64,000 bases of DNA from Alphaproteobacteria bacterium (GCA_965225945.1 CBDDBZ010000033.1:160001-224000), one strand, 5' to 3'; positions 1 through 51,283 are shown, counted from the first letter of the stretch. A program made the numbers and translations. Notes: generated by a model from the sequence alone, not told the origin.

Positions 1-344
1 GAAAACCAGTTCACAGAGCTATTTGTGAATAATCCGGCACTCGAATCCTACAATTCAATGAAGCTCTGATTTCCTGGAATATTCCATCGGTGTCGTTCAC
101 CTCCGATTTCAGATAAATTTCAATGAAGTGACGGTCCTTTATGCAACGTGGCGTTTTGCCAAATCCGACTCAATGATTAGGATTTCCACCACGCTAAAGT
201 GTCGCCTAAAAGGCGCTACAATGCCGTCCGAGTCCCTGCTCGGCATCGCCGGAGATATCTCCGCTTCGACCTGCACCGAGCTTTACTCAGGAAAATGGGT
301 GCACACTACATATAGTGGGTGTGGGTGATAACCGGATAGGCAAG
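1..344 (+). mobile_element. 755-bp non-autonomous TIR cassette, copy 1 (right part only; left part lies outside the window)
   Basis: Matches 30227-30570 and 43007-43350 by eye. Ends in the 43-bp TIR CACACTACATATAGTGGGTGTGGGTGATAACCGGATAGGCAAG (302-344). Confidence 0.95.
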
Positions 345-11688: not shown

Positions 11689-13100
11689 TGGAGTGCACCC
11701 CCTGGATGACACAAAGAATCAGGGACAGTTGGTTGTCATTTCCAGCGCCCGCCGGGCGGCGGTCTCTGGGGTGATGATGGTGTTTTCGAACTCCTCTGGT
11801 GATAGGTATCGAAGCGCCGAGTGGAGGCGCGTCTTGTTGTAGACCTCTTTGATGAAGCTGGCGATGTCGCTCTCGGCGTGGGCGATGTCCCGGTAGGGCC
11901 TGCCCTCAACCTCCTCTGTCTTCAAGGTCTTCATGAAGCTCTCCGCCATGGCGTTGTCGTAAGGGCAGGCGATCCGGCTCATCGAGGGCAGGATGCCATG
12001 GGCCTCCAGGCGGGCGATGTAGTCGCCGGAGGCATATTGAACGCCGCGATCGGAGTGATGCACCAGGCCATCGGGGATCACCTCGCGCTCCAGAAGCGCC
12101 ATATCCAAGGCCGCCAGCGTCAGGCTCGCCTTCAGATGATCGGCCAAGGCCCAGCCGATGACGCGCCGGCTGTGCGCATCGAGCACGACCGCCAGATAGG
12201 CGAAGCCCTCCAGCAAGCGAACATAGGTGATGTCGGCGACCCAGAGCTGGTTGGGGGCCGTCGTCTCCAACCGGCGCGCCAGGTTGGGATAGATCCGATA
12301 GCTATGCTTCGAGTCCGTGGTCGCCGGCGCGAAGCTCCGTCGACGCAGGCATAGCAGATTGTCCTCGCGCATCAAACGCAGCACCCGCTTGTGGTTGACG
12401 CTCCAGCCCTCGCGCCGCAACAGCGCCCCGATCCGCCGATAGCCGTAATGTTTGTTGTCGATCGCCAGGCGCTGGAGCTTATCGCGTAACGCCGTTTCCT
12501 CAGCCCTCGGCCTCGATGCCCGCCAATGGCGGTGAAAGCTCGATCGGCTCAGCCCCATCAGATCGCACATCCGTCCCATGCTCAATCCGCCTTGCCGCCG
12601 CGACCCGGCCCGGACGAGGCCGAAGACGCGCTCCCGCCAGAGCGACCGTTCGCTCCGCGGCAGCTCTCCGAGAGCCGCAAGGCTTGCCTGAAAAAATCCG
12701 CTTCCAAGGCCTGCTGGCCGACCTTCCGCTCCAGCTCGGCGATCCGCCGGCGCGCCAGGCTCAGGGCATCCGGCCGGACCGCCGGAACAGCACTTTCGGA
12801 CCCGGCGCGGAGGCCTTGCGCCCGCCTCCCTCCGACGACCGTGCTTCCCTTTCTGGGCCGGCCGGGCGGGCGCAAGGCCTCCGCGCCGCCCGCTCGGTAG
12901 GCATCGCGCCACTCGTAGAGCAGCTTGCGCCGGACCTCGAGCTCGCGTGACAGCGCCGAGACGTTCTCGCCCGACTCCATCCGCGCCAGCGCCGACAGCT
13001 TGAAGTCTCGGCTGAAACGCCGTGCACCTTTTCGTTCCATCAGTTCCTCCTCGGAAGAACTGTCACTCATTTCTCTGTGTCAGGACAGGGGTGCGGTCCA
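11689..13100 (-). mobile_element. IS3-family insertion sequence (orfA about 13040-12582; orfB 12579-11719)
   Basis: TG...CA ends with imperfect IRs (TGGAGTGCACCCCCTG / CAGGGGTGCGGTCCA). OrfA HTH (FSRDFKLSALAR). OrfB rve integrase with WVADITY, HHSDRGVQY and DNAMAESF. Confidence 0.92.
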
Positions 13101-24371: not shown

Positions 24372-27171
24372 GCTTGTGTAGCGTGAGGTCTGGAAATTTG
24401 GCTTCGCCCCGCGCCGGGGTATACCCCGGCGCGGGGCGATCCGTCATTTTGGTTATCCATGAAAGCGTCCAAACAAACATGGAGAACCAGTATGCGGAAA
24501 GACCAGGATAGCGCTGTCGAGGCTTTGGTGGAACAATTGATCGAAGGCGGTAGCGAGAACATGGCGACGGTCGGCGATGTCCCGCCCAATGTTGAAAAGT
24601 GCGAGATAGGCATCGTCTGATCGAGAGGCTACGCGGCCACCTCGATGTCTTCAATGACGGACTTTGCTCCGGCCTTTCTCACCGCCTCCCGCAGGGCGGC
24701 GTCAAGGACGGGGAGCTGGCGGTAGGCCTTGAGGCGGCGGAAGGTCTTTTGCGCCTCCAAGAGGCCGGCGGCGGTCCAACGCAGCGCCATCTCGGCGTTG
24801 CGCCAGCGCTTGACGTTCCGCTGCACCGTCCGGACGGTGCCGATCGCGTTCTCGATGGCGTTGGTGCAAGCCAGCGAGTGTCGAAGTTGCGGCGGGAGGC
24901 CGAGCCGGATCACGGTCAGGATCTCGTCCAGGCCCTCCAGGATCGAGCCCGAGACGCCGGGTGCGTCATGCTCCAGACGGCGGGCGAGGTTGCGCAAGAG
25001 CCGTTCGGCCTTGGCCGCGTCGTCCTGCTGCCAGGCCTGCCGCAAGACCTTCCTGACGCCGGCATGGAGGCTCTCGTCCAGCCGGTCCGTGATGTTGCGC
25101 CCCTTGTGCACCTGGCAGCGCTGGAGGGCCGCCGCCCGCCCGAAGGTCCGCCGGATCGCCTTCGAGAGCGCCTTGGCGCCGTCGACGATGTAGAGCCGAG
25201 GCCGTTCGGGATCGAGACCGCGCTCGATCAGGTTGTCGAGCATGGCTTGCACCGTGGCCGCGTTCTCCGTCGCGCCCTCGGCCAGGCCCAGCACGTGCTT
25301 CGCGCCGCCGGTGTCGATGCCGATCGCCGCCACCATCAGGTGATCGCCGACATGGAGCCCGTCGATCTGGAGCACCACGAGATCGAGATCGTCGAGCGGG
25401 CTCGCCAGCCAGGCCTTCAGCTTGCTTCGCGTCAACGCCACGAAACGGCGCGAGACCGCCGACTTCGAGGTTGCGTCACCCGATGCCGCCGGCAGATCGC
25501 CGCCCGCATCGTCCGGCAGGCGCACCGCGCGGGCATACTTGCGGGTCGAGACGTTGATCACCATCAGATTCATCGCCCAGGCTTGCAAGAGTTCGGGTTC
25601 CGACAGCAGCTCCCAACTCGGCAGGCTCATCTCCCGACCCGCGAAGTCCCGCACCCGAGGGCGCTCGACCTTCACTTTGCCGCCGTGGTAGGCGATCTCG
25701 CTCCGGGTCGTGCCCCATCGATGGCCCTTGCGCTCGCCCGAGCGGGCGTGGCGCGAACCGCACAAGGCTTCCGCGTCCGCCGACATCATCTCGTTCAAAG
25801 ACTCGAGGCCCGCCAAAAGGCAGAAGCGATCGACGCTCATGCGCAGATCGTCGAAGGCCTCCGGCATCGATGGCAAGAGCCGACAGGATGGTTCCGAGGA
25901 ACGGTCGTTGCGTGTAGTCTTGGTCATGGCGTCGTTCTCCTTGATGGAATCAGCACCCAGAGCCTAGCGGCTCCAGGCGGACGACGCCTACTTCAGCTTT
26001 TCAACAGAGCCCGGGACATCCCCCGACGGTCTTCGCCGGCCTTTTCAATCTCGCCATGCGGATCGAGCGGGAGAGGTTCTTGGGCGCCGGCCACTATGAG
26101 CGCACGCCCGAGCGGCGGGGATACGCCAACGGCACCAGACCCAAGAAGATCGACACCCCGGCCGGTACGGTGAGGCTCGAGGTTCCCAAGACCGCCGGTC
26201 ATGAGGCGCCTTTTTACCCCCAAGCCCTGGAGCGCGGACGGCGCTCCTGCCGCGCTGTCATGCTGGCCGTGGCGGAGATGTATATCAAAGGCGTCTCCAC
26301 CCGTGACGCCGAGGCGGTGATGCGCGAGTTCGGCCTGGAGAGCCTGTCGTCGAGCCAGGTCAGCCGCGCCGCCAAGCTCTTGGATGGGGAGCTGGATGCC
26401 TGGCGCAACCGGCCGCTGGGCGAGATCCGCTACCTGCTCCTCGACGCGCGCTATGAGAAAGTCCGAGAGGGTGGCGTGGTGCGCGACGCCGCCGTGCTCT
26501 CGGTGATCGGCATCGGCCCCGACCAGCGCCGCCGGGTGCTCGGTGTTTCCTGTGCGCTCTCCGAGGCCGAAGTGCACTGGCGCGCCTTCCTGGAGACCCT
26601 GGTTGCCGGTGGCATGCGCGGTGTCGCCTATATCGTTTCCGATGATCATCCAGGCCTCGGCGCCGCGCGCAAGGCCGTCCTCGGCGGCCGCCGTCTGGCA
26701 GCGCTGTCAGTACCATCTGGCTCAAAACGCCATCCATCACGCCCCCAACCTCGCCATCCGAAAGGCCATCGGCAAGGAGCTGCGCCGGGTCTGGAACGCC
26801 GCCGACAGCAAGGCCGCCGGGGCCGAGCTGGGCCACCTGGTGGCGGCCTACCGCGATAGCGCCCCCAAGCTCGCCGATTGGCTGGAGGCGGCGATCCCCG
26901 AGGGCCTCGCCGTCTTCGCCCTGCCCGAGCGCCACCAAAAGCGCATGCGAACCTCGAACCCCATGGAGCGATCCATCCAGCAGGAGATCAAGCGCCGCAC
27001 CGTAAAGGTCAGGGTCTTTCCCAACGAGGCCTCGCTCGAACGCCTGGTCACCGCCATCCTCGTCGAAATCGACGATAAATGGGAAACCACCGAAAAACCC
27101 TACATCACTTGGAAAGCAGAGGATGACTGATCAACGGCGTTCCGAATTTCCACACATCAGGTTGCTCAATC
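24372..27171 (+). mobile_element. IS256-family element A, copy 1, interrupted by IS256-B and frameshifted at about 26688
   Basis: Near-identical to 39534-40873 (inverted). Ends GCTTGTGTAGC / GTTGCTCAATC. Mutator-type transposase (LLDARYEKVR, QRCQYH, RTSNPMER). Confidence 0.92.
24573..26023 (-). mobile_element. IS256-family element B, copy 1 (transposase 25927-24629)
   Basis: IRs GGCGATGTCCCG / CGGGACATCCCC. 8-bp TSD CGACGGTC (24565-24572, 26024-26031) inside the 5' end of the IS256-A gene. Motifs IDGL, IVDGAKAL, QRCQVHK, TNAIEN. Confidence 0.95.
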
Positions 27172-29645: not shown

Positions 29646-29815
29646 CGAGCCCGGGCGCCCTCGACGCGCTGGTGGTGCGCGAGGCGGCGTGAGGTTGGCA
29701 AATTTTCGGTCTATCGAGAGGGAGTAGCCCTCTGCTTAAAGGGATTCGCCTGCAAGCGAGCGCACGTATTCGAGCGCCTTCCGCGCCGGAAGATAGTCCG
29801 GCTCATGGGACAGTG

Positions 29816-30570
29816 CTTGCCTATCCGGTTATCACCCACACCCACTATATGTAGTGTGTCTCCTTGGACTGCAGGCAAGGGCCGGCGCAGGCGCATTGAG
29901 GAGGCGATCCGGCTAATTCTTGATTGTTCTGAAAACCGAACCGGAGTTTAATTCACGTCACGTACTTAACATCGGGGGACGGAACGGTGGCGACCAAGGG
30001 AAAAACGAAGAAACCCACGGCCAGACGGGAAGCTGCTGATGAAACGACATCGTCTGAGCGATTGACGGCACTAGTCGAAGAAAGCGACGCGCTGGCACGA
30101 ATCGTTGCGAAGAACCCGTCCGCGCCTGTTAGTCTCCTGCGCGTTTTGAGTCGCAGCGAAGACGAAGCGACACGCAAGAACGTGATCCTCAATCCGTTTA
30201 CTTCATATGACGTATTGAGCGAACTTGAAAACCAGTTCACAGAGCTATTTGTGAATAATCCGGCACTCGAATCCTACAATTCAATGAAGCTCTGATTTCC
30301 TGGAATATTCCATCGGTGTCGTTCACCTCCGATTTCAGATAAATTTCAATGAAGTGACGGTCCTTTATGCAACGTGGCGTTTTGCCAAATCCGACTCAAT
30401 GATTAGGATTTCCACCACGCTAAAGTGTCGCCTAAAAGGCGCTACAATGCCGTCCGAGTCCCTGCTCGGCATCGCCGGAGATATCTCCGCTTCGACCTGC
30501 ACCGAGCTTTACTCAGGAAAATGGGTGCACACTACATATAGTGGGTGTGGGTGATAACCGGATAGGCAAG
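29816..30570 (+). mobile_element. 755-bp non-autonomous TIR cassette, copy 2
   Basis: Perfect 43-bp TIRs; 8-bp TSD GGACAGTG (29808-29815, 30571-30578). Confidence 0.97.
29987..30295 (+). CDS. Cassette passenger ORF, 102 aa, leucine-rich-variant (LRV)/HEAT-like repeats
   Basis: VAKNPSAPVSLLRVLS, VILNPFTSYDVLSEL and FVNNPAL follow the LRV pattern (A.NP..P...L..L). Identical in all complete copies. Confidence 0.6.
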   Translation: MATKGKTKKPTARREAADETTSSERLTALVEESDALARIVAKNPSAPVSLLRVLSRSEDEATRKNVILNPFTSYDVLSELENQFTELFVNNPALESYNSMKL

Positions 30571-31229
30571 GGACAGTGCACGCTCGAAGGCGCGTTCGAC
30601 TTTCTCGATCAGCCCTTGTCTCAACAAGACCCAACCCATGTTGAAGTGCGGGAACTGGTAGCAGCAATAGCGCTTGGCCCGGATCGCCTTCTCGAACCAA
30701 GGGATGGCCTCCTCCGCCCGCCCCAGAGTGATCAGATAGGCGCCGATATCGTTATAGGGATTGCCGTAATCGGGATCGATCGCTATGGCTTTCCTGCATT
30801 CCTCTATGGCTTCTTCGGTCTGACCCTGATGGCTCAGCGACCAGCCGAGGTAGGTATGTCCTTCCGCGGTCGGGCTGGCGTCGATCGACAGGCGGAAATG
30901 GCGCGCCGCAGCCTCGTACTGCCCCTGCAAGTGGAGAACGTATCCCTTTTGCCAGTAAAGGAAGGCGGCGCCCATTTTCGTGCTCTCGTCGGGACTGTCC
31001 CGGGGCGCGGCGTGGCCCATCGTGACCCCCATGAGGATCGCGATGGCAAGTAGGATGCTTGTCCGATACGGTCGACGCACGAGTCTCTGTTCCAGTCTCG
31101 CTAACGACACTCGGCAGTTTACCGCACACTGCCACCCGAGGTCACCGCCATTGCCCTCCGGCCCCTGGTCATGTGGCGGCGGTGGATGTTGGTCGAGAGG
31201 ATGTAGGCCACGGGATCGGGGCCGCGGCG

Positions 31230-31448: not shown

Positions 31449-32591
31449 CTAGTGTTCCGATCCTAACAAAAGTTTCCCAAAGGGCTTGCGTTCTGCGATT
31501 CTGGGGGAATGACGAAGACATTGGCATGCATCTGGCTGTCTCCCGCGGAGCGGGCGACGCTGGAAGGGTTGGTTTCTGGGCGGAACACGCCGCAGAAGCT
31601 GGTTTGGCGGGCACGGATCGTGTTGCTGTCGGCTGACGGGATCGGCACGATGACGATCGTCCGGTTGGTCGGCAAAAGTAAGGTGACGGTGTGGCGCTGG
31701 CAGGAGCGCTACCTTGCCAAAGGCATCGCCGGACTGCGCCGCGATGCGACGCGACCGGGACGCAAGCCGCCGCTGAGCGCCGAGGTGATCGAGCGGGTTG
31801 TGCATAAGACCTTGCACGAGACGCCGGAGGCGGCGACGCATTGGAGCATCCGCAAGATGGCCCGTGCCGTCGGCCTCAGCTACACCAGCGTGCAGCGGAT
31901 CTGGAAGGCGCACGGCCTCAAGCCGCACCTGGTGAAGACCTTCAAGCTGTCGAATGACGAACACTTCGTCGAGAAGGTGCGCGATATCGTCGGTCTCTAT
32001 CTCGATCCGCCGGACAAGGCGCTGGTTCTCTCGGTCGACGAGAAGAGCCAGATCCAGGCGCTCGACCGCACACAGCCCGGCTTGCCGATCAAGAAGGGCC
32101 GAGCCGGCACCATGACGCATGACTACAAGCGCCACGGCACGACGACATTGTTCGCCGCGCTCGACGTCGCCACCGGCAAGGTCATCGGCCACTGCATGAA
32201 GCGGCACCGCCATCAGGAATGGCTGAAATTCCTGCGCCGTATCGACGCCGAGACGCCCAAGAAGCTCGACCTGCATCTGATCGCCGACAACTACGCCACC
32301 CACAAGCATCCCAAGGTCAAGGCGTGGTTGGCAAAACATCCTCGCTTCCATATGCACTTCACTCCGACATCCGCCTCCTGGCTCAGCCAGGTCGAACGCT
32401 TCTTCGGCCTGATCACCAGCGATCAAATCCGTTGCGGCGTGTTCAAGAGCGTCGCCGAACTCGAAACAGCCATTCAGGAATACCTCGAGCACCACAATGC
32501 CGATCCAAAACCCTTCGTATGGACCGCTTCCGCCACCGCCATACTCGAAAAAGTCGCTCGTGGGCGACAGGCGTTAGAGTCGGTACACTAG
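31449..32591 (+). mobile_element. IS630-family element (transposase 31509-32591)
   Basis: IRs CTAGTGTTCCGATCCTAAC / GTTAGAGTCGGTACACTAG with a CTAG/TA target. Motifs VDEKSQIQAL, DYKRHGTT, DNYATHK, SWLSQVERFF. Confidence 0.95.
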
Positions 32592-34887: not shown

Positions 34888-34968
34888 AGCCAATACTTTC
34901 CATTCGACACTTCTAATGTATCGGTGTGCCTCGACCATCTGAGGTCGCTATTCCTGTGTCTGTTCAGC

Positions 34969-35723
34969 CTTGCCTATCCGGTTATCACCCACACCCACTA
35001 TATGTAGTGTGCACCCATTTTCCTGAGTAAAGCTCGGTGCAGGTCGAAGCGGAGATATCTCCGGCGATGCCGAGCAGGGACTCGGACGGCATTGTAGCGC
35101 CTTTTAGGCGACACTTTAGCGTGGTGGAAATCCTAATCATTGAGTCGGATTTGGCAAAACGCCACGTTGCATAAAGGACCGTCACTTCATTGAAATTTAT
35201 CTGAAATCGGAGGTGAACGACACCGATGGAATATTCCAGGAAATCAGAGCTTCATTGAATTGTAGGATTCGAGTGCCGGATTATTCACAAATAGCTCTGT
35301 GAACTGGTTTTCAAGTTCGCTCAATACGTCATATGAAGTAAACGGATTGAGGATCACGTTCTTGCGTGTCGCTTCGTCTTCGCTGCGACTCAAAACGCGC
35401 AGGAGACTAACAGGCGCGGACGGGTTCTTCGCAACGATTCGTGCCAGCGCGTCGCTTTCTTCGACTAGTGCCGTCAATCGCTCAGACGATGTCGTTTCAT
35501 CAGCAGCTTCCCGTCTGGCCGTGGGTTTCTTCGTTTTTCCCTTGGTCGCCACCGTTCCGTCCCCCGATGTTAAGTACGTGACGTGAATTAAACTCCGGTT
35601 CGGTTTTCAGAACAATCAAGAATTAGCCGGATCGCCTCCTCAATGCGCCTGCGCCGGCCCTTGCCTGCAGTCCAAGGAGACACACTACATATAGTGGGTG
35701 TGGGTGATAACCGGATAGGCAAG
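34969..35723 (-). mobile_element. 755-bp non-autonomous TIR cassette, copy 3 (inverted; passenger ORF 35552-35244)
   Basis: 43-bp TIRs; 8-bp TSD TGTTCAGC (34961-34968, 35724-35731). Confidence 0.97.
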
Positions 35724-36029
35724 TGTTCAGCTTCGCTAGACTTCGCCCATGTCCGAGGGTACGCAGCGCAGGCTAGCGGCGATCGTCTCCGCCGACGTGG
35801 TCGGTTACACGGTGCTCCGTGGTCGCGGGAGGGTCGTGGTGGAGCCGGCCGTCTGAACCATCAGGGTGCCGGATGGGCGGACAGATTGAGCCAGCGAATC
35901 AGGTGGGATCCCGGGTACGTCGGGAATTGGGGGTGAACTCTCCGTCGCCAGGCCGTGCCATCCACGCCCGGGTATAGCCATGAGGCGACGCGCATAGATT
36001 CTTCGCTGGCTGTTCGCTAAAATCGGCGC

Positions 36030-37938: not shown

Positions 37939-39161
37939 CATGGTACACGACGGCATTTACGTAGGACGTTGAAAAGGTTGTAGGATTCCCGATTCACTCC
38001 ACGACGAGTCAAGAGGGAAATCATGCGAGACAACCCGATCAACGCCCTGCGTGAGACGCTACGATGCGGCTTCGCCTTTCGCAAGAGCCGTCTGGAGAGC
38101 CTTTGCGTCTTGGTCTTCGGCGTGTTCGTCGCCCGGACGGTGAACCTCTCTCACTTGGCCTGCCACTTTCCGGGGCGCGCGCGATCCAGCTCCAACTATC
38201 GGCGCCTGCAACGGTTTTTCGAGCAAGTCGATTTCGATTACGATCGCCTCGCCGAGTTCCTGGTCGCGATGATGGGGCTCCAGGCGGGGCCGTGGCGGCT
38301 GACCATGGACCGGACCAACTGGCGGCTGGGTCGCCGCGACGTCAACATCTTGATGATCGGCATCGTCAACCGCGCCATCGCCATTCCCGTGTGCTGGCGG
38401 GTGCTCGACAAGGCGGGCAATTCCAATACCAAGGAGCGGATCGCGATCCTCGAACACGTCCTCCGGCTCTTCGGGGTCGACAAGATCGCCAGCCTCCTGG
38501 CCGACCGGGAATTCATCGGCGACGCCTGGCTGGCATGGTTGCAGGAAAAGGCCATCCCCTTTCACATCCGCATCCGATCCAACATCAAGATCGCCAACAC
38601 GCGTGGTCGCATGGTCAAGGCGAGGGAGCTGTTTCGCGACCTCAAACCCGGGGAAAGCCGCATCCTCTCCAACGCCAGGCGCCTCTCGGAGGCCAGAAAA
38701 CCCAAGGCCAGGCCCGTCTTCGTCGCCGCGCTCCATCTCAAGACCGGCGAACTGTTGATCGTCGTGACCAACGACGCGCCCGAGGAGGCCTTGGCCATCT
38801 ACGCCCAGCGCTGGCAAATCGAGACCCTCTTCGCCGCCTTGAAAACCCGTGGCTTCAACCTCGAAGACACCCACATGACCGACCCGGAGCGCATCTCCAA
38901 GCTCACCGCCGTCCTTTCCATCACCTTCTGCTGGGCGCACAAAGTCGGCGATTGGCTCCACGAGGCCGAGCCGATCCGCCTCAAAACCCACAAAAGGATG
39001 GCAAAATCCATCTTCCGATACGGTTTCGAGTGGATAAGGCGACAGCTCGTCAATCCTATCGACAGGCGTCAAGCCATTGAGCTGATTCGTTTCCTCGTCC
39101 CCGGAAAACCACCAGTCCAGGTGCCCAGGCCAAAGCCAGCATGAACGAGTCGTGTACTGTG
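37939..39161 (+). mobile_element. IS4-family (IS10-like) element (transposase 38023-39144)
   Basis: IRs CATGGTACACGAC / GTCGTGTACTGTG; 9-bp TSD ATCGGGGGT (37930-37938, 39162-39170). Motifs MDRTNW, LADREF, YAQRWQIETLFAALK (YREK). Confidence 0.95.
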
Positions 39162-39533: not shown

Positions 39534-40873
39534 GATTGAGCAACCTGATGTGTGGAAATTCGGAACGCCGTTGATCAGTCATCCTCTGCTTTCCAAGTGA
39601 TGTAGGGTTTTTCGGTGGTTTCCCATTTCTCGTCGATTTCGACGAGGATGGCGGTGACCAGACGTTCGAGCGAGGCCTCGTTGGGAAAGACCCTGACCTT
39701 TACGGTGCGGCGCTTGATCTCCTGCTGGATGGATCGCTCCATGGGGTTCGAGGTTCGCATGCGCTTTTGGTGGCGCTCGGGCAGGGCGAAGACGGCGAGG
39801 CCCTCGGGGATCGCCGTCTCCAGCCAATCGGCGAGCTTGGGGGCGCTATCGCGGTAGGCCGCCACCAGATGGCCCAGCTCGGCCTCGGCGGCCTTGCCGT
39901 CGGCGGCGTTCCAGACCCGGCGCAGCTCCTTGCCGATGGCCTTTCGGATGGCGAGGTTGGGGGCGTGATGGATGGCGTTTTGAGCCAGATGGTACTGACA
40001 GCGCTGCCAGACGGCGCCGCCGAGGACGGCCTTGCGCGCGGCGCCGAGGCCTGGATGATCATCGGAAACGATATAGGCGACACCGCGCATGCCACGGGCA
40101 ACCAGGGTCTCCAGGAAGGCGCGCCAGTGCACTTCGGCCTCGGAGAGCGCACAGGAAACACCGAGCACCCGGCGGCGCTGGTCGGGGCCGATGCCGATCA
40201 CCGAGAGCACGGCGGCGTCGCGCACCACGCCACCCTCTCGGACTTTCTCATAGCGCGCGTCGAGGAGCAGGTAGCGGATCTCGCCCAGCGGCCGGTTGCG
40301 CCAGGCATCCAGCTCCCCATCCAAGAGCTTGGCGGCGCGGCTGACCTGGCTCGACGACAGGCTCTCCAGGCCGAACTCGCGCATCACCGCCTCGGCGTCA
40401 CGGGTGGAGACGCCTTTGATATACATCTCCGCCACGGCCAGCATGACAGCGCGGCAGGAGCGCCGTCCGCGCTCCAGGGCTTGGGGGTAAAAAGGCGCCT
40501 CATGACCGGCGGTCTTGGGAACCTCGAGCCTCACCGTACCGGCCGGGGTGTCGATCTTCTTGGGTCTGGTGCCGTTGGCGTATCCCCGCCGCTCGGGCGT
40601 GCGCTCATAGTGGCCGGCGCCCAAGAACCTCTCCCGCTCGATCCGCATGGCGAGATTGAAAAGGCCGGCGAAGACCGTCGCCATGTTCTCGCTACCGCCT
40701 TCGATCAATTGTTCCATCAAAGCCTCGACAGCGCTATCCTAGTCTTTCCGCATACTGGTTCTCCATGTTTGTTTGGACGCTTTCACGGATAACCAAAATG
40801 ACCGATCGCCCCGCGCCGGGGTATACCCCGGCGCGGGGCGAAGCCAAATTTCCAGACCTCACGCTACACAAGC
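39534..40873 (-). mobile_element. IS256-family element A, copy 2 (ORF 40720-39575)
   Basis: Inverted copy of 24372-27171 without the IS256-B insert. Codon 5 from the upstream ATG is TAG here and CAG in copy 1. No TSD. Confidence 0.93.
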
Positions 40874-41622
40874 CTCCTTTGCCGATGAGGACGGTCTGCA
40901 CCGCCGTCTTCATGTTGTCGTAGATGCCTCGCCGGCAGGCACCCTGGAACAGCCGGAATGCCCGGTCGTGGGCGTCGAACACCATCTCCTGGCTCTCGCG
41001 CGGATAAGCGCGGACGAAGAACATTCGGCTGTGGCACAGCCGGACGTGCGCGACCTTGACCTTGGTCGTCACCCCCGCCAGCACCACGTACTCGTGGCTC
41101 CAGTCGAACTGATAGGCCTCGCCCGGCGAGAACACCAACGGCACATAGGTCTGCGCCGTCGATGCCGAACGGCGCCACCGCCACGCCTTGGCGTAGCGCC
41201 GCACCGCGTCGTAGCCGCCGCCATAGCCCAGACCCTCGAGGGCTTCGGAGATCCGTAGCAGCGTCAGCCGCTCCCGCTTCGACTTGGTCTCGTTGGCCTC
41301 CAGCATCCGCTCCAGCTCGGCCGTCCACGGCCCCAGCTTCGGCATCGGCTGGACCCGCCGGTCGTAGGTGAACGCCGTCGCCTGCGAACGGATCACCTTG
41401 CGCACCGTGTTGCCCGAGACCTTCACGTCCCGCACGATCTCCTTGATCGGCTTCCCCTTGACAAAATACTCCCGCCGGATCCGCGCTATCGTCTCCACGA
41501 CCAACATCCCCCACCACCTCGTCCGCCCAAAAACGAGGTGACTTGGACTAGCCAGGCTCAGGGGGTCAAATTTGGACGCCGATCACCCCTCAACAGGGGT
41601 CAACTTTGCACGCCGTTCCACA
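40874..41622 (-). mobile_element. IS21-family element, copy 2 (5' part of istA only)
   Basis: Near-identical to about 28314-29062; truncated by IS256-A. Confidence 0.9.
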
Positions 41623-42595
41623 CCCAGAAGGAGATGCCCTGTTTGGCGCAGGTCTTCATGAGGCCGAGGAAGGCGTCGCGGGCCTCGCGGCCGGCCTCGG
41701 ATCGGGTGCCGCCGGAGATCTTGCGGCGGGTCACCTGGCAGCGGATGTCGTTCTCCGAGCCGTTGGTGTTGAGCGGCACCTCGGGGCGCTCGAGCACCAG
41801 CAGCAACTCTTCCTTGTTGCCATGGAGCCGGGCGAGCAGGCGATCGAGGGTGGCGAAGCCGGTGCGCCTGGTGAAGATATCGTCGAAGCGCCGGCGAAGC
41901 TCGCGTCTTCGTCGCCGGCGCGGGTCTTCGCGGTAGGCCTTGGGGTCCGCGTAGAGCCACCAGATCCGGGTCCGGATCCGTTCTTTCGCTTGCGCCTGCG
42001 CCTGAGTGAAACAATCCAGCTTATGGACCAAGCGCTCGGCGTGGACCCAGCAGAGCGCGTGATGGCCGACGTTGAACTGGCCGGCGTCGTCGCTGAGGAT
42101 GACGCTGTCTTTGAGCAGGCCGTGGTCAGTAAGGGAGCCCCAGAGCGCGCCCTCGGTGGCGATCTTGACCGGATCGGGCTGGACCTCGAGGTCCGTGATC
42201 CCCAAGGCCTTCAGGTGGCTCATCCAGATCCTCTCGTCGGCAAAGCGGCGCACCCGGGCCGTTTCCAAACGGGCGACGAGGGGGCCGGCGAGACGGCGTT
42301 CGCGCATGTAGGCCAAGGCCGCGTCATTGACCAGGTAGTCTTCGTGACCGGCCCGCAGCAGTTCCAGGAAGTTCCGCCGTCTCTTGGAAAAGCCGGTGGC
42401 GAACCAGGCGAAATGGTCGTTGCCGATCTGCGTGCACACGCCGTTGCGCGCCCGATGGCGGGCGCCGGTGTCGTCCACGCTGACCCAGGCCGCGGTCTCC
42501 AGGCCGGCGCGCAGAACCGCGCCCGCCTCGCCGGTGAAGCACGCCTGGTCCTCGTTCAGGAGCCGCATCACCTGGCGCTTGGAGATCGCCACCCC

Positions 42596-43350
42596 CTTGC
42601 CTATCCGGTTATCACCCACACCCACTATATGTAGTGTGTCTCCTTGGACTGCAGGCAAGGGCCGGCGCAGGCGCATTGAGGAGGCGATCCGGCTAATTCT
42701 TGATTGTTCTGAAAACCGAACCGGAGTTTAATTCACGTCACGTACTTAACATCGGGGGACGGAACGGTGGCGACCAAGGGAAAAACGAAGAAACCCACGG
42801 CCAGACGGGAAGCTGCTGATGAAACGACATCGTCTGAGCGATTGACGGCACTAGTCGAAGAAAGCGACGCGCTGGCACGAATCGTTGCGAAGAACCCGTC
42901 CGCGCCTGTTAGTCTCCTGCGCGTTTTGAGTCGCAGCGAAGACGAAGCGACACGCAAGAACGTGATCCTCAATCCGTTTACTTCATATGACGTATTGAGC
43001 GAACTTGAAAACCAGTTCACAGAGCTATTTGTGAATAATCCGGCACTCGAATCCTACAATTCAATGAAGCTCTGATTTCCTGGAATATTCCATCGGTGTC
43101 GTTCACCTCCGATTTCAGATAAATTTCAATGAAGTGACGGTCCTTTATGCAACGTGGCGTTTTGCCAAATCCGACTCAATGATTAGGATTTCCACCACGC
43201 TAAAGTGTCGCCTAAAAGGCGCTACAATGCCGTCCGAGTCCCTGCTCGGCATCGCCGGAGATATCTCCGCTTCGACCTGCACCGAGCTTTACTCAGGAAA
43301 ATGGGTGCACACTACATATAGTGGGTGTGGGTGATAACCGGATAGGCAAG
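42596..43350 (+). mobile_element. 755-bp non-autonomous TIR cassette, copy 4 (passenger ORF 42767-43075)
   Basis: 43-bp TIRs; 8-bp TSD GCCACCCC (42588-42595, 43351-43358). Removal restores IS66 LSDIGVAISKRQV. Confidence 0.97.
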
Positions 43351-43886
43351 GCCACCCCGATATCGCTGAGCAAGGCCACCAGACGCGCCACCGTGGTCTG
43401 GCCCTGGTGGTAGAGGTCCACCACGAAGCGGCGCAACTCCGACCCGAAGTGGCCCTTCGCCCCCGCTGGCAAGGCCGCTATCACCGTCTCTCCCGACGGC
43501 GTCACCCAGCGTTGCCGGTGGTAGCGCAGGGTATATGGGCGCACCAAGAGATCTTGGACCACGTAGGGCTCGGTGCCCTTGAAGCGCGAGCCCGGCGGAA
43601 CCTCGGCCACAAGGATGCGCTCCTCGTCGATACGCAGCCGCGCGTTCTTCTTGCCCCGGCGGGCCTGTTGGCGCCGTTCCTTGGTCTTGCGTCGTTCGGC
43701 CGCCTTCTTCTCCATGCCGCTCGGCTTGATCTTGGGCCGCCCCTTGAGCCCTTTCAGCCGCGCGATCTCCTCGCGCAAGGCCGCGTTCTCCACTCGCAGA
43801 CGCGCGACCTCCTCCAATTGCCGGAGCACCAACCGCTTGAGGTCGTCCAGGCTCAGGGCCTCAATATCCGGGAGCGATTCGGCCAT

Positions 43887-45337
43887 GGGGATGTCCCGGG
43901 CTCTGTTGAAAAGCTGAAGTAGGCGTCGTCCGCCTGGAGCCGCTAGGCTCTGGGTGCTGATTCCATCAAGGAGAACGACGCCATGACCAAGACTACACGC
44001 AACGACCGTTCCTCGGAACCATCCTGTCGGCTCTTGCCATCGATGCCGGAGGCCTTCGACGATCTGCGCATGAGCGTCGATCGCTTCTGCCTTTTGGCGG
44101 GCCTCGAGTCTTTGAACGAGATGATGTCGGCGGACGCGGAAGCCTTGTGCGGTTCGCGCCACGCCCGCTCGGGCGAGCGCAAGGGCCATCGATGGGGCAC
44201 GACCCGGAGCGAGATCGCCTACCACGGCGGCAAAGTGAAGGTCGAGCGCCCTCGGGTGCGGGACTTCGCGGGTCGGGAGATGAGCCTGCCGAGTTGGGAG
44301 CTGCTGTCGGAACCCGAACTCTTGCAAGCCTGGGCGATGAATCTGATGGTGATCAACGTCTCGACCCGCAAGTATGCCCGCGCGGTGCGCCTGCCGGACG
44401 ATGCGGGCGGCGATCTGCCGGCGGCATCGGGTGACGCAACCTCGAAGTCGGCGGTCTCGCGCCGTTTCGTGGCGTTGACGCGAAGCAAGCTGAAGGCCTG
44501 GCTGGCGAGCCCGCTCGACGATCTCGATCTCGTGGTGCTCCAGATCGACGGGCTCCATGTCGGCGATCACCTGATGGTGGCGGCGATCGGCATCGACACC
44601 GGCGGCGCGAAGCACGTGCTGGGCCTGGCCGAGGGCGCGACGGAGAACGCGGCCACGGTGCAAGCCATGCTCGACAACCTGATCGAGCGCGGTCTCGATC
44701 CCGAACGGCCTCGGCTCTACATCGTCGACGGCGCCAAGGCGCTCTCGAAGGCGATCCGGCGGACCTTCGGGCGGGCGGCGGCCCTCCAGCGCTGCCAGGT
44801 GCACAAGGGGCGCAACATCACGGACCGGCTGGACGAGAGCCTCCATGCCGGCGTCAGGAAGGTCTTGCGGCAGGCCTGGCAGCAGGACGACGCGGCCAAG
44901 GCCGAACGGCTCTTGCGCAACCTCGCCCGCCGTCTGGAGCATGACGCACCCGGCGTCTCGGGCTCGATCCTGGAGGGCCTGGACGAGATCCTGACCGTGA
45001 TCCGGCTCGGCCTCCCGCCGCAACTTCGACACTCGCTGGCTTGCACCAACGCCATCGAGAACGCGATCGGCACCGTCCGGACGGTGCAGCGGAACGTCAA
45101 GCGCTGGCGCAACGCCGAGATGGCGCTGCGTTGGACCGCCGCCGGCCTCTTGGAGGCGCAAAAGACCTTCCGCCGCCTCAAGGCCTACCGCCAGCTCCCC
45201 GTCCTTGACGCCGCCCTGCGGGAGGCGGTGAGAAAGGCCGGAGCAAAGTCCGTCATTGAAGACATCGAGGTGGCCGCGTAGCCTCTCGATCAGACGATGC
45301 CTATCTCGCACTTTTCAACATTGGGCGGGACATCGCC
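43887..45337 (+). mobile_element. IS256-family element B, copy 2 (transposase 43983-45281)
   Basis: Same 1451-bp length and identical protein to copy 1; 9-bp TSD TTCGGCCAT (43878-43886, 45338-45346). Confidence 0.95.
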
Positions 45338-45548: not shown

Positions 45549-45837
45549 CTACCTTGGACGAGCATCATATCCATCTGGGAGCCCTTGCCTCAATTTGATG
45601 AAGGGCTGGTACTCGATGTCGCTATGCCAGGCACGGGCGGCCTCCATATTAGGAAATTCGATAATATTGATGGCCGTGATATCTGGCTGCGTGCCTTCCA
45701 ACATCTCCCACGGCGAGTTTCTTGCGCGCGCAAGGTAGCGTCCCCCATGCTTCGCGATCAATGCCGCCACGGGATCCTTGTAGTCTTCTATCCACGATCG
45801 GTCATGCATCTTAAAGACCAACTGCATATGCGACCAT
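45549..45837 (-). pseudogene. DUF1330-family protein with apparent frameshifts at both ends
   Basis: IAKHGGRYLAR...IIEFPNMEAARAWHSDIEYQP. The natural start MVAYAVG (GGAGGG RBS) and tail GSQMDMMLVQG lie in other frames. Confidence 0.75.
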
Positions 45838-45935
45838 GATACCCTCCACCTCTGTGCCGGATCAGATCCTATGTGAGACCAACTGCATATGCGACCATGA
45901 TACCCTCCACCTCTGTGCCGGATCAGATCCTATGT
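45815..45935. repeat. Tandem duplication, 60 bp x2 (period 61)
   Basis: AGACCAACTGCATATGCGACCATGATACCCTCCACCTCTGTGCCGGATCAGATCCTATGT at 45815 and 45876. Confidence 0.95.
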
Positions 45936-45995: not shown

Positions 45996-48826
45996 GGTCA
46001 AGTCCGGATTCTGCTGGGAATTTTCTCCGGGGTTGCCTCCGTCGAGGCCTGTTCTGGTAGTTCCAGCTCGGCTTGGTATTCCTGATCGAGTTCCTTCCTG
46101 ACGGCGTCCATCTGGCGCCGCTCGAAGACGGTGACCTTGACTGCTTTCCATCGCTCGGCGGCGCGGCTCATGGCACCGAACATGAGCTTCAGTACCGCCT
46201 TTTCGCCGAAGGCGTTGGGGATGATCTTCAAGCGCCGGCGCTCCTCCCCGAACAATCTCTCCAGCAGGTTGGTGGTGCGGATCGCCCGGCGGTGATTGAC
46301 CGGCATGCGCAGGTGCGCGATGCAGGCCTCGAAATCATCCAGGAAACAGGCCACCGCCGAGGGCAGCTCGCGCTCCCAGTCACGCACCACGCCCTCGGCC
46401 AGATCGCGGGCGATGGCGCGCGAGGGGGCCTGGTAGGCCGCTTGGGCGCGGGCCTTGAACTCCGGCCAGAGATCCTCGGGCACCTTCGCCGCCAAGTTCC
46501 TCATCCGGTGCGCGAGGCAGCGTTGGCGCGCGCTCCTGGGAAAACAAATGGGGATTATGAATGCTACTTGACGCCCTGCGGGAAATCCGCATGATGGACG
46601 GATGTTTGGAACCGAGGCATCCCTCCCCATTACGGTCAAAGAGGTGGGGGCGGTCGTGAGGCGCTTCTTATTAATGCTCCGCCTGCATCGGTGTCCGTGT
46701 TTCGATCGCACTCTCTTTTGGACGTTCTCATGGAAACTAGCGGATATATTTCGAGTTCTCGAAAGTCCTGACGTCTCTCCTGACGGATTTACGCATAATC
46801 ACTACTTGGCAAAACGAGACGTGGAACGCATCACAGGAACGTTTAACATTGACTGTCCTGAAATAGACGCCGACACGGTAAGGATTTGGCTTCACTATAT
46901 GGCGCTGCTGATTGATTCATGTAAAGACGGCAATCTGAAGGTGGCGAGGAATATTATGAGAGATCCCAATCTGAGATTCAGATCAGATGACTAGACCCAA
47001 CTTCGCCAGCGGCCCAGAGCACGGGCAACAAGACGATGGCCGAATGGAGGGCCGCACAATGACCCGAGGCGTCCCTGTTCTCGACCCGGCGGTGCACCTG
47101 AAGGGTGCGACCCCGGAGAAACTGGCGAAGGCGCTCTTTCGCCGAACCGAGCCGCTACCGCCCCGCGTTGGAAAGCCCGTTGCTGGCGACGAGGTCGCGG
47201 TAGAGAAGGTTTCGACCGACGAGCCGGGCAACAGTGTCCCGCATTTGGGCAAGAGTGCCTGAGTCGCGGATGTTGTGCTTGCCAGCGAACTCCTGGACGT
47301 AACGGTCAAGATGCTTCGGACTGATCTTGTGGAAGGTTCCTTTGTGGGCGCGCTTGAGCATGCTCCAGAAGCTTTCAATACCGTTGGTATGCGCCATGCC
47401 GTCAACGTACTCGCCAACGCTGTGTTTGACGGTTTCGTGGTCGAAAGTCAGCCCCTTATAGGAGCCATGATCGTCCGTGTAGACCTTGGCATCGGACGCG
47501 GCGTGATCCGCGACGAACCCCTGCAATGTCTGGCCATCTGTGTCGTCAACGACACGGGCCGTCACTTTGTTGCTGTCGCGGTCTTTCATACCAACAACGG
47601 CGGTCTTGCCAACTGCACTACGTCCGGTGCCCGCCAACTCTTTGCGCTTGGCCTTGCTCATGTTCTTGCGCTTGCCGCCAAAGTAAGTTTCGTCTACCTC
47701 GACCGGGCCGTCGAAAGGTTCGCCGTTCTCGCCCGCCCACGCTTCACGGATACGGTGCAACATGAACCAAGCTGTAGGCTGGGATACGCCGATATCGCGG
47801 GACAGTTTCATGCTGGCGACGCTTTTAAGGCTGGTAAGGCACAAGTAGATGGCGATGGCCCACTTGCGAAGCGGGACGTTGGAGCGGGCAATCGGCGTTC
47901 CGGTGCGGACGCTGAAATACGACCGGCAGTCAGAGCACCAATAGGGCATCGGTTTGGCGTTCGGGACTTCGCGCGTCCGAACGCTCCCGCACTTGCCGCA
48001 ATGCCGCTCGCCGTCACGCCAGATAACGGACTCGAACCATGCCGTCGCGGCAGCCTCATCCAGGAACATGTCCATGAGCTGGACCAGCGTAACGCCTTCG
48101 CGATGGGCTTTGCCTGGGGCTTTCTGCGTCATGTCCGTGTCTCCCTTCCAACACCTTGGAATATAGGGAGTCAGTCAGCTAATGTCAAGTAGTCTTTATA
48201 ATCCCCTTTCGAACTCGCTAAGGTCGCGCTTGGCGAAGCCGAGGTAGTCCGCCCAGAGCCGCTCCCCCATCTCCGAGACCGCCGTGCGCGACAGCAGCAA
48301 GCGCCCACTTTCTTCCCTGAAGGCATCTTCGATGTCGCGCACCGAGAGACCGCGCGCCAGCATCTCCACGGCTAAATCCTCCAGGCCCTCGGAATGACCC
48401 TTCAGCTGCGCTCGCAGATCCGAACGGAACGGTTCGTCCGTCCCGGCGACCTGCGGCGCCGCATACCTGATCCGCCCCTCGGCCGTCTTCAGATGACCTT
48501 CGCGCGAACCGTTCCGGTAACCTCGGCCAGGCTCGGAACCGTGCTCGTAATAGTCCCGGCCCAGGGCGTCGCGCACCTCGGCCTCCAAGCCTTCCTCGAT
48601 GATCAACCGCGTCGCCAACCGCACCAATTCACTCTTCGCGTCGACCACGCGGGCGCGCCCTTCGATCAGGTCGTTCAAGGCTTCACGCGTGCGCTCGCTT
48701 CCGGGTAGTCTCTTCGTCATGGAGGTGCCTCCTGTGCTGGGCTGGCGCGCAGCCATGCCCGGGTGGGAATCGACACCTCGAAGGATGCACCTCCTACCAA
48801 ATTCCCAGCAAGTCTAGGACTTCACC
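45996..48826 (-). mobile_element. IS256-family element C, interrupted and partly deleted by IS1595
   Basis: IRs GGTCAAGTCC..TGCTGGGAATTT / AAATTCCCAGCA..GGACTTCACC; flanking repeat TCGAAGAT (45988-45995, 48828-48835). N-part 48720-48207; C-part 46549-45998 (RQRCLAH, RTTNLLER). Confidence 0.88.
46550..48206 (-). mobile_element. IS1595-family element (ISNwi1-like ends; transposase 48132-47155) with passenger ORFs 46602-46994 and about 46987-47262 on the + strand
   Basis: IRs GGGGATTAT(N5)CTACTTGAC. Zn-finger CGKC..CSDC; motifs VEVDETY, YTDD, HTNGIESFW. Confidence 0.9.
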
Positions 48827-49175: not shown

Positions 49176-50126
49176 CTAAGCCTCCACCCGAGCCCGCACC
49201 TCGGTTTTGAACCAGTCCATCACCTCGTACGACTCCTCAACGCTGCCTCGGACCAGGTTGACGATCATGGTGGTGACGCCGGCCTCCCCCAGCGCGCGAA
49301 TGTCGCCGGCGATCTCGTCCGCCGTGCCGGTGAGGATGAAGCGCTCGCCACCCTCCAGCGCGAAAGGTGGTGCGTCGAACGGCCAGTTGGCGCAGTAGCT
49401 GCGCGTGATCGTCGCCGGATCGCGTCCGGCCTTCTCGGCCGCCGCCTCCAGCCGCCCGACCCGGGCGGTGTATTGCGGAAGCGTCGCGCACGGGAACCTG
49501 GGATTGGCGCCGATCGGGTACCAGCCATCGCCCAGTTCCGCCGTCCGCCGGAGCGCCCTCGGGCTTTCGCCGCCGATCCAGATCGGAATGGTGCCCTGGG
49601 CCGGCTTGGGCTCGAAGACGATGTCGGCATAGGCGCCGTAGGCGCCGTCGTGACTCGGCGTGTCATCCTGCCAGAGGCTGCGGAAGATCCGGATGTATTC
49701 GTCGGTGACGTCGCCACGGGCCTCGAACGGCGGTGCGCCCAGGGCCTCGAACTCTTCCTTCATCCAGCCGGCGCCGCAGCCGAGCGTCACTCGCCCCTCC
49801 GAGAGGTGATCGATGGTGGCGAGGATCTTGGCGGTGTGGACGGGTGCGCGGTGCGGCACCACCATCACCGAAGTGAGGAGCCGCACCCGTGTCGTCACCG
49901 CCGCGAGCCAGGCGAGCGCCGTCGGCTGGTCGAGCCAGAGGTCGGGAAAGGTCGGCTTGCCGTCGGCGGCATAGGGGTAGACGTGGGCGAAGGACTTGGG
50001 GATCACGATATGGTCCGAGACGGTGAGGTATTCGTAGCCCATCTCCTCGCCCTTGCGCGCGAGCGCCTTGAGCTCCCGCTGGGTGGCCATCGGCCCCCGG
50101 GTCGGCATGCCGAAACCAAATTCCAT
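49176..50126 (-). CDS. LLM-class (probably F420-dependent) oxidoreductase
   Basis: VSDHIVIP, TAKILATIDHLSEGR, GAGWMKEEF, IWIGGES. Confidence 0.9.
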   Translation of the reverse strand: MEFGFGMPTRGPMATQRELKALARKGEEMGYEYLTVSDHIVIPKSFAHVYPYAADGKPTFPDLWLDQPTALAWLAAVTTRVRLLTSVMVVPHRAPVHTAKILATIDHLSEGRVTLGCGAGWMKEEFEALGAPPFEARGDVTDEYIRIFRSLWQDDTPSHDGAYGAYADIVFEPKPAQGTIPIWIGGESPRALRRTAELGDGWYPIGANPRFPCATLPQYTARVGRLEAAAEKAGRDPATITRSYCANWPFDAPPFALEGGERFILTGTADEIAGDIRALGEAGVTTMIVNLVRGSVEESYEVMDWFKTEVRARVEA

Positions 50127-50153
50127 GATCTCTTCTCCTCCTGTTGGTGTAGA

Positions 50154-51110: not shown

Positions 51111-51283
51111 GGTGCCCTCTCCCCTCGTTCTCCGCCGCCGCCCGCCATGCTAGCGCGCCCTCGCCCGCTCCGCGATAGAGGAAAAGCGCATAGGGGAGAG
51201 GCGGGCGCATCGTCAAGCCCATAGGAGACGGTAAACTCGTGGAGTTCGCCCCTCCGATTGACGCGCCGAGCAAACTTGGCTAG

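Follow-up and report, generated by a model that had tools for sequence, protein, structure and literature searches.

In DDE insertion sequences, the terminal bases of each end serve catalysis and the subterminal part serves sequence-specific binding of the transposase. The ends of some elements also hold sites for host factors: the DnaA box in the outside end of IS50 and the IHF sites in the ends of IS1 and IS10 were shown experimentally, and they work singly. Insertion sequences have non-autonomous derivatives as well, known as MITEs and mobile insertion cassettes, some of which carry passenger genes. For the element described here the nearest known relatives are ISAcr1 and its kin, which we take to form part of the ISSod11 subgroup, with ends of the form nnnGcnTATC. 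As described in PMC8101967, members of the IS1595 family make 8-bp target duplications and encode transposases with a zinc-finger plus DDE_Tnp_IS1595 architecture.

The second system that bears on this locus is the operator of NrdR. The NrdR box is a 16-bp site with highly conserved C4, A6, A8, T9, T11 and G13, among which C4/G13 and A6/T11 form the critical pairs; the bases between C4 and G13 must be at least 63% A/T, and positions 3, 5, 7, 10 and 14 are tolerant of change (PMC13584703). Binding needs two boxes with a 15-16 bp linker, and a linker of 26-27 bp is tolerated (PMC13584703, PMC12051234). Neither box 1 nor box 2 alone is bound by the NrdR of E. coli, a protein that cross-binds with that of S. 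coelicolor (PMC13584703). The NrdR tetramer presents two zinc-ribbon pairs 80 Å apart, each pair for one box (PMC9110341). An earlier note on this DNA had given an NrdR consensus and likened to it a palindrome in the ends of a small mobile cassette; the consensus given there is consistent with the literature (PMC13584703).

The window, by which we mean the whole 64,000-nt stretch of DNA that was analysed, holds seven exact matches to this palindrome, CCACTATATGTAGTGT, at 303(-), 29842(+), 30529(-), 34995(+), 35682(-), 42622(+) and 43309(-). Allowing up to two mismatches adds none, and 100 dinucleotide-preserving shuffles of the window gave zero matches (expected 0). Every site is the inner 16 nt of a 43-nt inverted repeat, CTTGCCTATCCGGTTATCACCCACACCCACTATATGTAGTGTG, whose two copies are 100% complementary; the palindrome, hereafter the box, occupies repeat positions 27-42. 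Read directly, six of its eight mirror pairs are complementary, which makes it an imperfect palindrome. The features are as follows.

29816..30570, + strand: cassette copy 1, 755 bp, same as copies 2 and 3; ends match ISAcr1
29808..29815, again at 30571-30578: target-site duplication of copy 1, 8 bp, GGACAGTG
29816..29858, + strand: left terminal inverted repeat of copy 1, 43 bp, 100% complementary to 30528-30570
29842..29857, + strand: NrdR-box-like palindrome CCACTATATGTAGTGT, left end of copy 1, exact match, 19.74 bits
29987..30295, + strand: passenger ORF, 102 aa, LRV_2 (leucine-rich repeat variant; PF25591, E 2.6e-08, 34.1 bits against a cut-off of 27)
30456..30551, + strand: transposase relic, last 31-32 codons (ESLLGIAGDISASTCTELYSGKWVHTTYSGCG, then stop), 58-66% identical to five reference transposases at their C-termini
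30528..30570, - strand: right terminal inverted repeat of copy 1, 43 bp; box at 30529-30544
34969..35723, - strand: cassette copy 2 (inverted); repeats 34969-35011 and 35681-35723, boxes 34995-35010 and 35682-35697
34961-34968 and 35724-35731: target duplication of copy 2, 8 bp, TGTTCAGC
42596..43350, + strand: cassette copy 3; repeats 42596-42638 and 43308-43350, boxes 42622-42637 and 43309-43324
42588-42595 and 43351-43358: target duplication of copy 3, 8 bp, GCCACCCC
1..344, + strand: fourth cassette copy, right 344 bp only, cut by the window start; box at 303-318
47155-48132, - strand: other IS1595-family transposase, 28-31% identical, with different ends

The three complete copies and the partial one are 100% identical to each other. 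Each complete copy (3/3) is flanked by its own 8-bp target duplication, and the copies were therefore made by recent transposition. Copy 3 is inserted in an IS66-family transposase fragment. The GC content of the cassette is 51%, against 65% for the window, and an Rfam scan of the window returned 0 families at gathering score. The earlier note had described an imperfect palindrome at seven sites in the inner part of the repeats, with the repeat ending one base beyond it, and both descriptions hold: all seven matches are exact and lie in a perfect 43-nt repeat, and in copy 1 the last base of the box is 29857 and that of the repeat 29858. Its further claim, that 43 bp is over-long for a repeat of this type of insertion sequence, was not borne out. 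In 10 complete relatives the similarity between left and right ends also reaches about position 42: identity is high over the outer part (22-25 of 26 positions), lower over the box (9-12 of 16) and lower still past the box (3-9 of 18). The unusual trait of the cassette is that its repeat is perfect, with 16 of 16 box positions shared between left and right.

When plasmids were searched for distant DNA similarity, 11 records matched the cassette, all of them over no more than its last ~68-124 bp, and no record covered 80% of the query. The matches are to ISAcr1 ('IS1595-like element ISAcr1 family transposase') on Acidiphilium and Acidithiobacillus plasmids, with a further match to an unannotated relative on sphingomonad plasmids (a Rhizorhabdus relative). 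In ISAcr1 both ends carry the terminal sequence of the cassette, and the transposase gene stops within the right repeat (...WTHPTFSGCG, stop). The relic in the cassette enters its right inverted repeat in the same way, and there the box codes H-T-T-Y-S-G. Pfam finds both Zn_ribbon_IS1595 and DDE_Tnp_IS1595 in the transposases of autonomous relatives, and the cassette itself has no transposase gene with these domains. With only 31-32 transposase codons left, the cassette is a derivative and not an autonomous member, and an alignment of the ends gives its inverted repeats as homologous to those of autonomous members. Judged from its sequence, then, the cassette is a non-autonomous derivative of an ISAcr1-type element of the IS1595 family. 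It shares with ISAcr1 and relatives the terminal CTTGCCTATCCGGTT..., a subterminal CACTA-N4-TAG box, the 8-bp duplication and a transposase C-terminus that runs into the right end. It differs in lacking a transposase (a 32-codon relic remains), in having two identical ends, both of the right-end type, and in carrying the 102-aa LRV_2 ORF. We sought an ISAcr1-type transposase across the window and found none, so the cassette would have to be moved in trans from elsewhere in the genome. A second IS1595-family element in the window (~46.78-48.2 kb) was considered as the autonomous partner and rejected, since its transposase is 28-31% identical and its ends differ.

The cassette resembles MITEs and mobile insertion cassettes in being short, in having the ends of an insertion sequence with target duplications, in its several identical copies and in its presumed mobilisation in trans. 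Unlike these, it holds a small conserved ORF, for which 234 homologues were found at E <= 0.001, mostly of equal length: among the best 120 of the 234, 85 are exactly 102 aa long and 97 fall between 100 and 103 aa. Many of the homologues lie on contigs of ~0.4-1.5 kb, the size of the cassette itself, and the combination of many same-length homologues with cassette-sized contigs makes the cassette a widespread family with a conserved small protein. Truncated relatives of the cassette occur in two alphaproteobacterial assemblies (L031, L032). These two are the only cases in other genomes in which we found the LRV ORF beside 'solo' ISAcr1-type ends. Elsewhere, such solo ends adjoin ordinary genes: AcrB, WD40, ABC-2 and DJ-1.

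We next consider how closely the box resembles an NrdR site. By the description of PMC13584703, CCACTATATGTAGTGT satisfies all single-box criteria in both orientations, with 7 of 8 positions between C4 and G13 being A or T. For scoring we used a symmetrised matrix made from the ten natural validated boxes in Table 1 of PMC13584703. On this matrix the box scores 19.74 bits, compared with 11.5-18.5 bits for the ten training boxes and 9.84 bits for the next best 16-mer of the window; from the exact score distribution at the base composition of the window, the probability of 19.74 bits is 7.6e-10 per position. A poor matrix score, which the earlier note had named as grounds for abandoning the resemblance, was thus clearly not obtained. 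Two alphaproteobacterial nrdHIEF loci served as positive controls (L124 and L125). In both, the best box pair lies upstream of the operon with a 15-bp linker, in L125 upstream of an annotated nrdH and in L124 in a locus without gene annotation. The strong box of L124, CTACTATATCTTGTGT, belongs to a likely nrdHIEF operator; it scores 16.5 bits and has the same base as the cassette box everywhere except at 3 of its 16 positions. The cassette box has in common with NrdR operators that it is a 16-bp, partly palindromic sequence with C4/A6/A8/T9/T11/G13 and an A/T-rich centre, and it out-scores ten validated boxes. It differs from an NrdR operator in being single, with no partner at 15-16 or 26-27 bp, and in lying inside transposon ends with no nrd gene near.

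To place the box in its family, we scanned genome contigs with TGCCTATCCGGTTNNNNCNNANAC, in which the box was left unspecified. This gave at least 117 stretches, with full flanks for 80 loci. Sorting of 135 matches by tblastn with reference transposases assigned 47 left ends and 37 right ends among the matches listed, and left 51 unclassified, many of which are truncated by contig ends or are chance matches. Across the 83 distinct ends among the matches listed, the box is most conserved at C1 (0.94), C4 (0.93), A6 (0.96), T11 (0.89) and G13 (0.90), followed in the same ends by T5 (0.83), A3 (0.78), C2 (0.77), A12 (0.75), T9 (0.69) and A8 (0.66). Positions 7, 10 and 14 are free in these 83 ends, and overall the pattern is that of NrdR. 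Among the matches listed, all 21 distinct right ends reach 11.5 bits or more (median 17.4); all 21 have C4/A6/T11/G13, and 20 also have the A/T content required between C4 and G13. The 33 distinct left ends among the matches listed have a median of 7.0 bits, and 7 of them reach at least 11.5; C4/A6/T11/G13 is present in 30, and 10 combine it with the A/T content. The 21 right ends include one cassette copy (L032), and three of the 'left' rows are MITEs of 288-298 bp. A GGGC centre is common at left ends among the matches listed. Conservation of the box in related autonomous elements, which had been proposed as a check, is thus seen for C4/A6/T11/G13 in 21/21 right and 30/33 left ends among the matches listed. 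The ends come from related elements, whose aligned transposases are 78-92% identical to the first sequence of the alignment, and a few metagenome-assembled genomes dominate the sample, so these counts do not represent independent events.

The likeness of the family profile to the NrdR matrix extends over the columns, with a mean column correlation of 0.81 for right ends, 0.59 for left ends and 0.74 for both combined; the next best offset gives at most 0.36. Column-shuffled palindromic matrices, taken at their best offset, reach the right, left and combined correlation in 2, 8 and 0 of 5000 trials, respectively. The box is absent further out in the family. ISRama1 and ISCsp2, with transposases 36-37% identical, have different ends without the box, and their best scores on the NrdR matrix are 8.4 and 4.2 bits. 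Two other distant relatives (L119 and L122) have no clear inverted repeat (20/30 matches), so ISRama1 and ISCsp2 are the only informative ones at this distance. A box restricted to one clade fits co-evolution with the transposase better than it fits a universal host factor.

Because the transposase gene runs into the right end, the right-end box can be read as codons, and in the family it specifies H-P-T-x-S-G in the tail of the transposase. Box 6 and box 9, both third-codon positions, do not vary across the 21 distinct right ends among the matches listed, and one of the two is a fourfold-degenerate Thr site. At box 7, a second-codon position, all four bases occur in the same 21 ends, giving C, Y, S or F as the residue. 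The five third positions within the box have an average majority frequency of 0.91. Over the 25 codons upstream of the box, 1 of 25 third positions is invariant and the mean majority frequency is 0.62. This pattern indicates that the constraint on the box is on the DNA and not on the protein. The earlier note had suspected selection on the box, from the point at which the repeat stops. That suspicion is supported by synonymous positions that are fixed within the box and variable upstream of it, and the selection acts on the whole family of insertion sequences. A central AT at a synonymous site is kept in 21/21 right ends, and GG stands there in 19/33 left ends, among the matches listed.

Left and right ends also differ as promoters. 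A -35 element at repeat positions 14-19 and a -10 element at 37-42, which are box positions 11-16, pass a sigma-70 rule in 12/33 left ends and 0/21 right ends among the matches listed. In one relative (L039) this left-end pair is the only promoter-like site called; promoter calling did not return the left-end site in ISAcr1 or in the cassette. Both ends of the cassette are of the right-end type, with an A/T centre and TTATCA at the -35 position, and two such repeats fit an element that needs no transposase promoter.

Taking these observations together, we consider it probable that the box is the insertion sequence's own subterminal recognition module, the inner part of a bipartite ISAcr1-type end at which the transposase docks. 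The nearly invariant outer block (positions 3-15, TGCCTATCCGGTT) would, together with the terminus, take part in cleavage and strand transfer, and the inner block (~positions 23-42, ACACC-CACTA-N4-TAG) would be the transposase dock, probably as a symmetric pair. Docking may take place through the N-terminal zinc ribbon and helical domain of the transposase. In autonomous elements the -10 hexamer of an inward promoter would lie on the distal half (TAGnnT) of the left-end box, and a transposase bound there could also repress its own gene; at the right ends the last transposase codons overlap the box. The cassette has lost the transposase and kept two right-end-type repeats together with the LRV ORF; an ISAcr1-type transposase whose gene lies outside the window would move it in trans. 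Our literature search listed no binding experiment for any IS1595-family transposase, and the transposase as the binding protein is therefore inferred, as is autoregulation at the left end. That the palindrome is simply the transposase binding site had been put forward as the outcome that would undo the NrdR proposal. With the box a clade-specific module, as deduced from conservation, this is now the better-supported reading, and recruitment of NrdR is unlikely. At the sequence level the likeness to an NrdR box is real, but it most likely reflects two similar CxA...TxG palindromes and not a working operator.

A structure model of the N-terminal 140 residues of the transposase, built from 53 sequences (pLDDT 82.4), has a zinc ribbon followed by three helices, and this region could read the box. 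With 10 sequences as input, the confidence of the model had been too low for further work (pLDDT 50.9). We also considered whether the zinc ribbon of the transposase is kin to that of NrdR, an idea for which profile and Foldseek searches gave no support. A profile of 10 transposases had 2 matches among PDB sequences (E 0.7-0.8), neither of them NrdR. Foldseek of the PDB with the N-terminal model gave 0 matches at E <= 0.001, and its best 50 did not include NrdR but consisted of ribosomal and RNA polymerase proteins with generic zinc ribbons; zinc ribbons are very small, so this null result is not strong evidence against kinship. Several observations run counter to the box being a transposase module. 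The match to the NrdR matrix far exceeds what a generic CTA-N4-TAG palindrome needs, and the likeness of the family profile to NrdR holds solely in the correct register. The constraint on the central AT of right ends is not obviously explained by a transposase site shared between the two ends, and the promoter evidence is patchy among ends.

One alternative is that another host protein, of the DNA-bending or nucleoid kind, binds the box, or that the box is a promoter element only, with transposase recognition lying wholly in the outer 26 bp. Host-factor sites in insertion sequence ends have precedents (IHF, DnaA), and the A/T-rich centre held at synonymous sites in right ends is like a bendable site. 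However, the outer 26 bp are conserved too, and a bipartite transposase site is the simpler account. As a promoter element, the box is favored by the -10-like hexamer over box 11-16 in 12/33 left ends among the matches listed, but this leaves conservation at the right ends unexplained, where 0/21 of the matches listed pass the promoter rule. We regard this alternative as unlikely.

The proposal of the earlier note was that NrdR itself is recruited. In this scenario the dATP/ATP-sensing NrdR of the host binds the box at each end and either bridges the ends, through the two DNA-binding faces that its tetramer has, or blocks the site of the transposase; transposition or transcription of the cassette would then track dNTP status. 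The single-box evidence given above is all in its favor: a score beyond the ten validated boxes (19.74 bits against 11.5-18.5), every one-box criterion described in PMC13584703, right ends at or above 11.5 bits in 21/21 distinct cases among the matches listed, a profile similarity above that of shuffled controls, and an nrdHIEF strong box in L124 only 3 of 16 positions away. NrdR is moreover near-universal in Proteobacteria, with regulons reconstructed in 186/196 proteobacterial genomes (PMC5343134), and on this basis the host likely has nrdR.

Against NrdR stands its requirement for two boxes 15-16 or 26-27 bp apart. We searched for a partner at linkers of 14-17 and 25-28 bp on both sides of the box. 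None was found at the 7 sites in the window, where the best candidate per site scores between -8.84 and -3.75 bits; the scores at random positions have their median at -5.6 and their 95th percentile at 1.18, and the partner boxes of the control nrdHIEF operators score 2.6 and 4.9 bits. The outer position at 15-16 bp is occupied by the fixed sequence of the terminal repeat, which scores about -9 to -10 bits. No inner partner was found in the ends of relatives either (0/21 right and 0/34 left, among the matches listed). Among the 31 unclassified ends in the matches listed there is a single partner match, and it is the opposite end of a 112-bp MITE (L065) with its boxes 27 bp apart. The pair scan is weakly specific for weak boxes, in that the weaker box of the best chance pair in the window scores 2.6 bits, a value shared with the L124 control, and the negative result therefore rests on the partners of strong boxes and not on a genome-wide call of pairs. 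The 55 ORFs scanned in the window include no ribonucleotide reductase, ATP-cone or nrdR gene, and none of the sites is at the promoter of a ribonucleotide reductase operon, all of them being transposon ends.

Other evidence points the same way. Transcriptional control could operate at the left ends, yet these resemble NrdR boxes less than the right ends do (among the matches listed, 7/33 at or above 11.5 bits and 10/33 with the A/T content), and the box is missing from more distant IS1595 relatives. Of the papers listed by our literature searches, none, judged by title or abstract, links NrdR boxes with insertion sequences. The look-elsewhere effect is also large, given many transcription-factor motifs and many windows. 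By the two-box test, then, the site reads as an excellent single NrdR-type box under selection, yet not as an operator, and the ends are not supported as recruiters of NrdR. We consider recruitment quite improbable.

A bolder version would place one NrdR half-operator at each end of ISAcr1-type elements and of the LRV cassette. The tetramer would then take one box from each end, or both boxes of the 112-bp L065, which are separated by 27 bp; the dATP/ATP ratio would then control transposition, and the elements would seed new NrdR-controlled sites. The logic would be that of the host-factor sites in IS50 (DnaA) and in IS1 and IS10 (IHF), with the site of a host regulator inside the transposase-binding region. 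Those sites act singly, however, whereas NrdR requires a pair of boxes, and we think this version very improbable. If NrdR did bind, this would be the first known transposon to read dNTP status through a host repressor, and a means by which NrdR boxes are spread.

Some insertion sequences hide their ribosome-binding site near the transposase start. The last alternative, that the palindrome is a hairpin in a read-through transcript or in single-stranded DNA and not a duplex protein site, draws on the 6/8 complementary mirror pairs of the cassette box and on the position of the left-end box just upstream of the transposase start, but we find it barely credible, since the stem is just 5 bp, conservation peaks at right ends, which have no start codon to mask, and the 54 distinct ends among the matches listed lack compensatory change (pair 5/12 departs from T-A 14 times, with Watson-Crick pairing in 0/14 and T-G in 2; pair 7/10 is complementary in 27/54 and pair 8/9 in 34/54).

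If the box is indeed the docking module of the transposase, it is an ordinary cis element of an insertion sequence. The analysis would then define the inner recognition module of ISAcr1-type ends and their left/right asymmetry, and it leads to the recognition of a widespread transposase-less cassette with a conserved small LRV ORF. In genome-wide prediction of NrdR sites in Alphaproteobacteria, ISAcr1-type ends will show up as isolated boxes with very high scores. Shorter ISAcr1-type MITEs, of 112-298 bp, are also present among the matches listed in the contig scan.

Each of the three complete copies of the cassette, a transposase-less ISAcr1-type derivative of the IS1595 family, carries an LRV_2 ORF of 102 aa:

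29987-30295, LRV_2 ORF
42767-43075, LRV_2 ORF
35244-35552, - strand, LRV_2 ORF

This ORF has 234 homologues at E <= 0.001, and among the 120 matches listed, 85 are exactly 102 aa long. Many of the homologues are carried on contigs of ~0.4-1.5 kb. Given the number of homologues, their mostly equal length and these short contigs, the ORF-bearing cassette appears to be a repeat family that is widespread and encodes a small, conserved protein. At the right repeat of copy 1, the reading frame of a neighboring gene stops within the repeat, and this gene was probably cut short by the cassette insertion:

30532-31110, - strand, TPR-repeat ORF

The subterminal boxes of the ISAcr1-type ends resemble NrdR boxes, and we examined box pairs in other genomes, scored in bits on a matrix from 10 validated NrdR boxes:

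L124:676-722, candidate NrdR box pair, 15-bp linker, 5′ of an alphaproteobacterial nrdHIEF operon
L125:557-603, the same arrangement
L065:1599-1710, 112-bp MITE with ISAcr1-type ends

The pairs upstream of nrdHIEF are likely NrdR box pairs. In L124, the strong box scores 16.5 bits and its partner, where the C-to-G distance is 9 bp, just 2.6 bits; therefore, natural NrdR partner boxes can score as very degenerate on the small matrix used. The two subterminal boxes of the L065 MITE, one at 14.2 bits and the other with a GGGA center, are separated by 27 bp, a spacing that NrdR tolerates.

The window also holds a second IS1595-family element, unrelated to the cassette:

46780-48200, second IS1595-family element
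47155-48132, - strand, its transposase

This transposase is 28-31% identical to ISAcr1-type transposases, and the ends of the element, ATAAWSACTACTTGRCA, are distinct from those of the cassette. The element, which includes a low-GC stretch at 46.8-47.0 kb, interrupts a gene for a Mutator-family transposase, leaving its two parts at 45998-46711 and 48196-48756.

Nested insertion sequences occur at 24372-27171, 39534-40873 and 43887-45337. They include a 1451-bp element, listed here with the other elements nearby:

24573-26023 and 43887-45337, 1451-bp IS256/Mutator-family element, copies 100% identical and mutually inverted
31509-32591, IS630-like element
41600-42676, IS66 fragment, interrupted by cassette copy 3
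11719-12912, IS3-like element
38023-39144, DDE_Tnp_1 gene

One 1451-bp copy sits within another Mutator-family IS, itself present in two copies, both of which contain a 36-nt perfect G+C-rich palindrome, TCGCCCCGCGCCGGGGTATACCCCGGCGCGGGGCGA (24404-24439 and 40806-40841). The ORF at 49473-51224, for which a Pfam scan returned no match, has an internal direct repeat of ~540 nt (49327-49865 / 50305-50843, 74% identity). At 45815-45935, flanked by an IS256-family copy and a Mutator fragment, a 60-nt sequence is present in two exact tandem copies spaced 61 nt apart.
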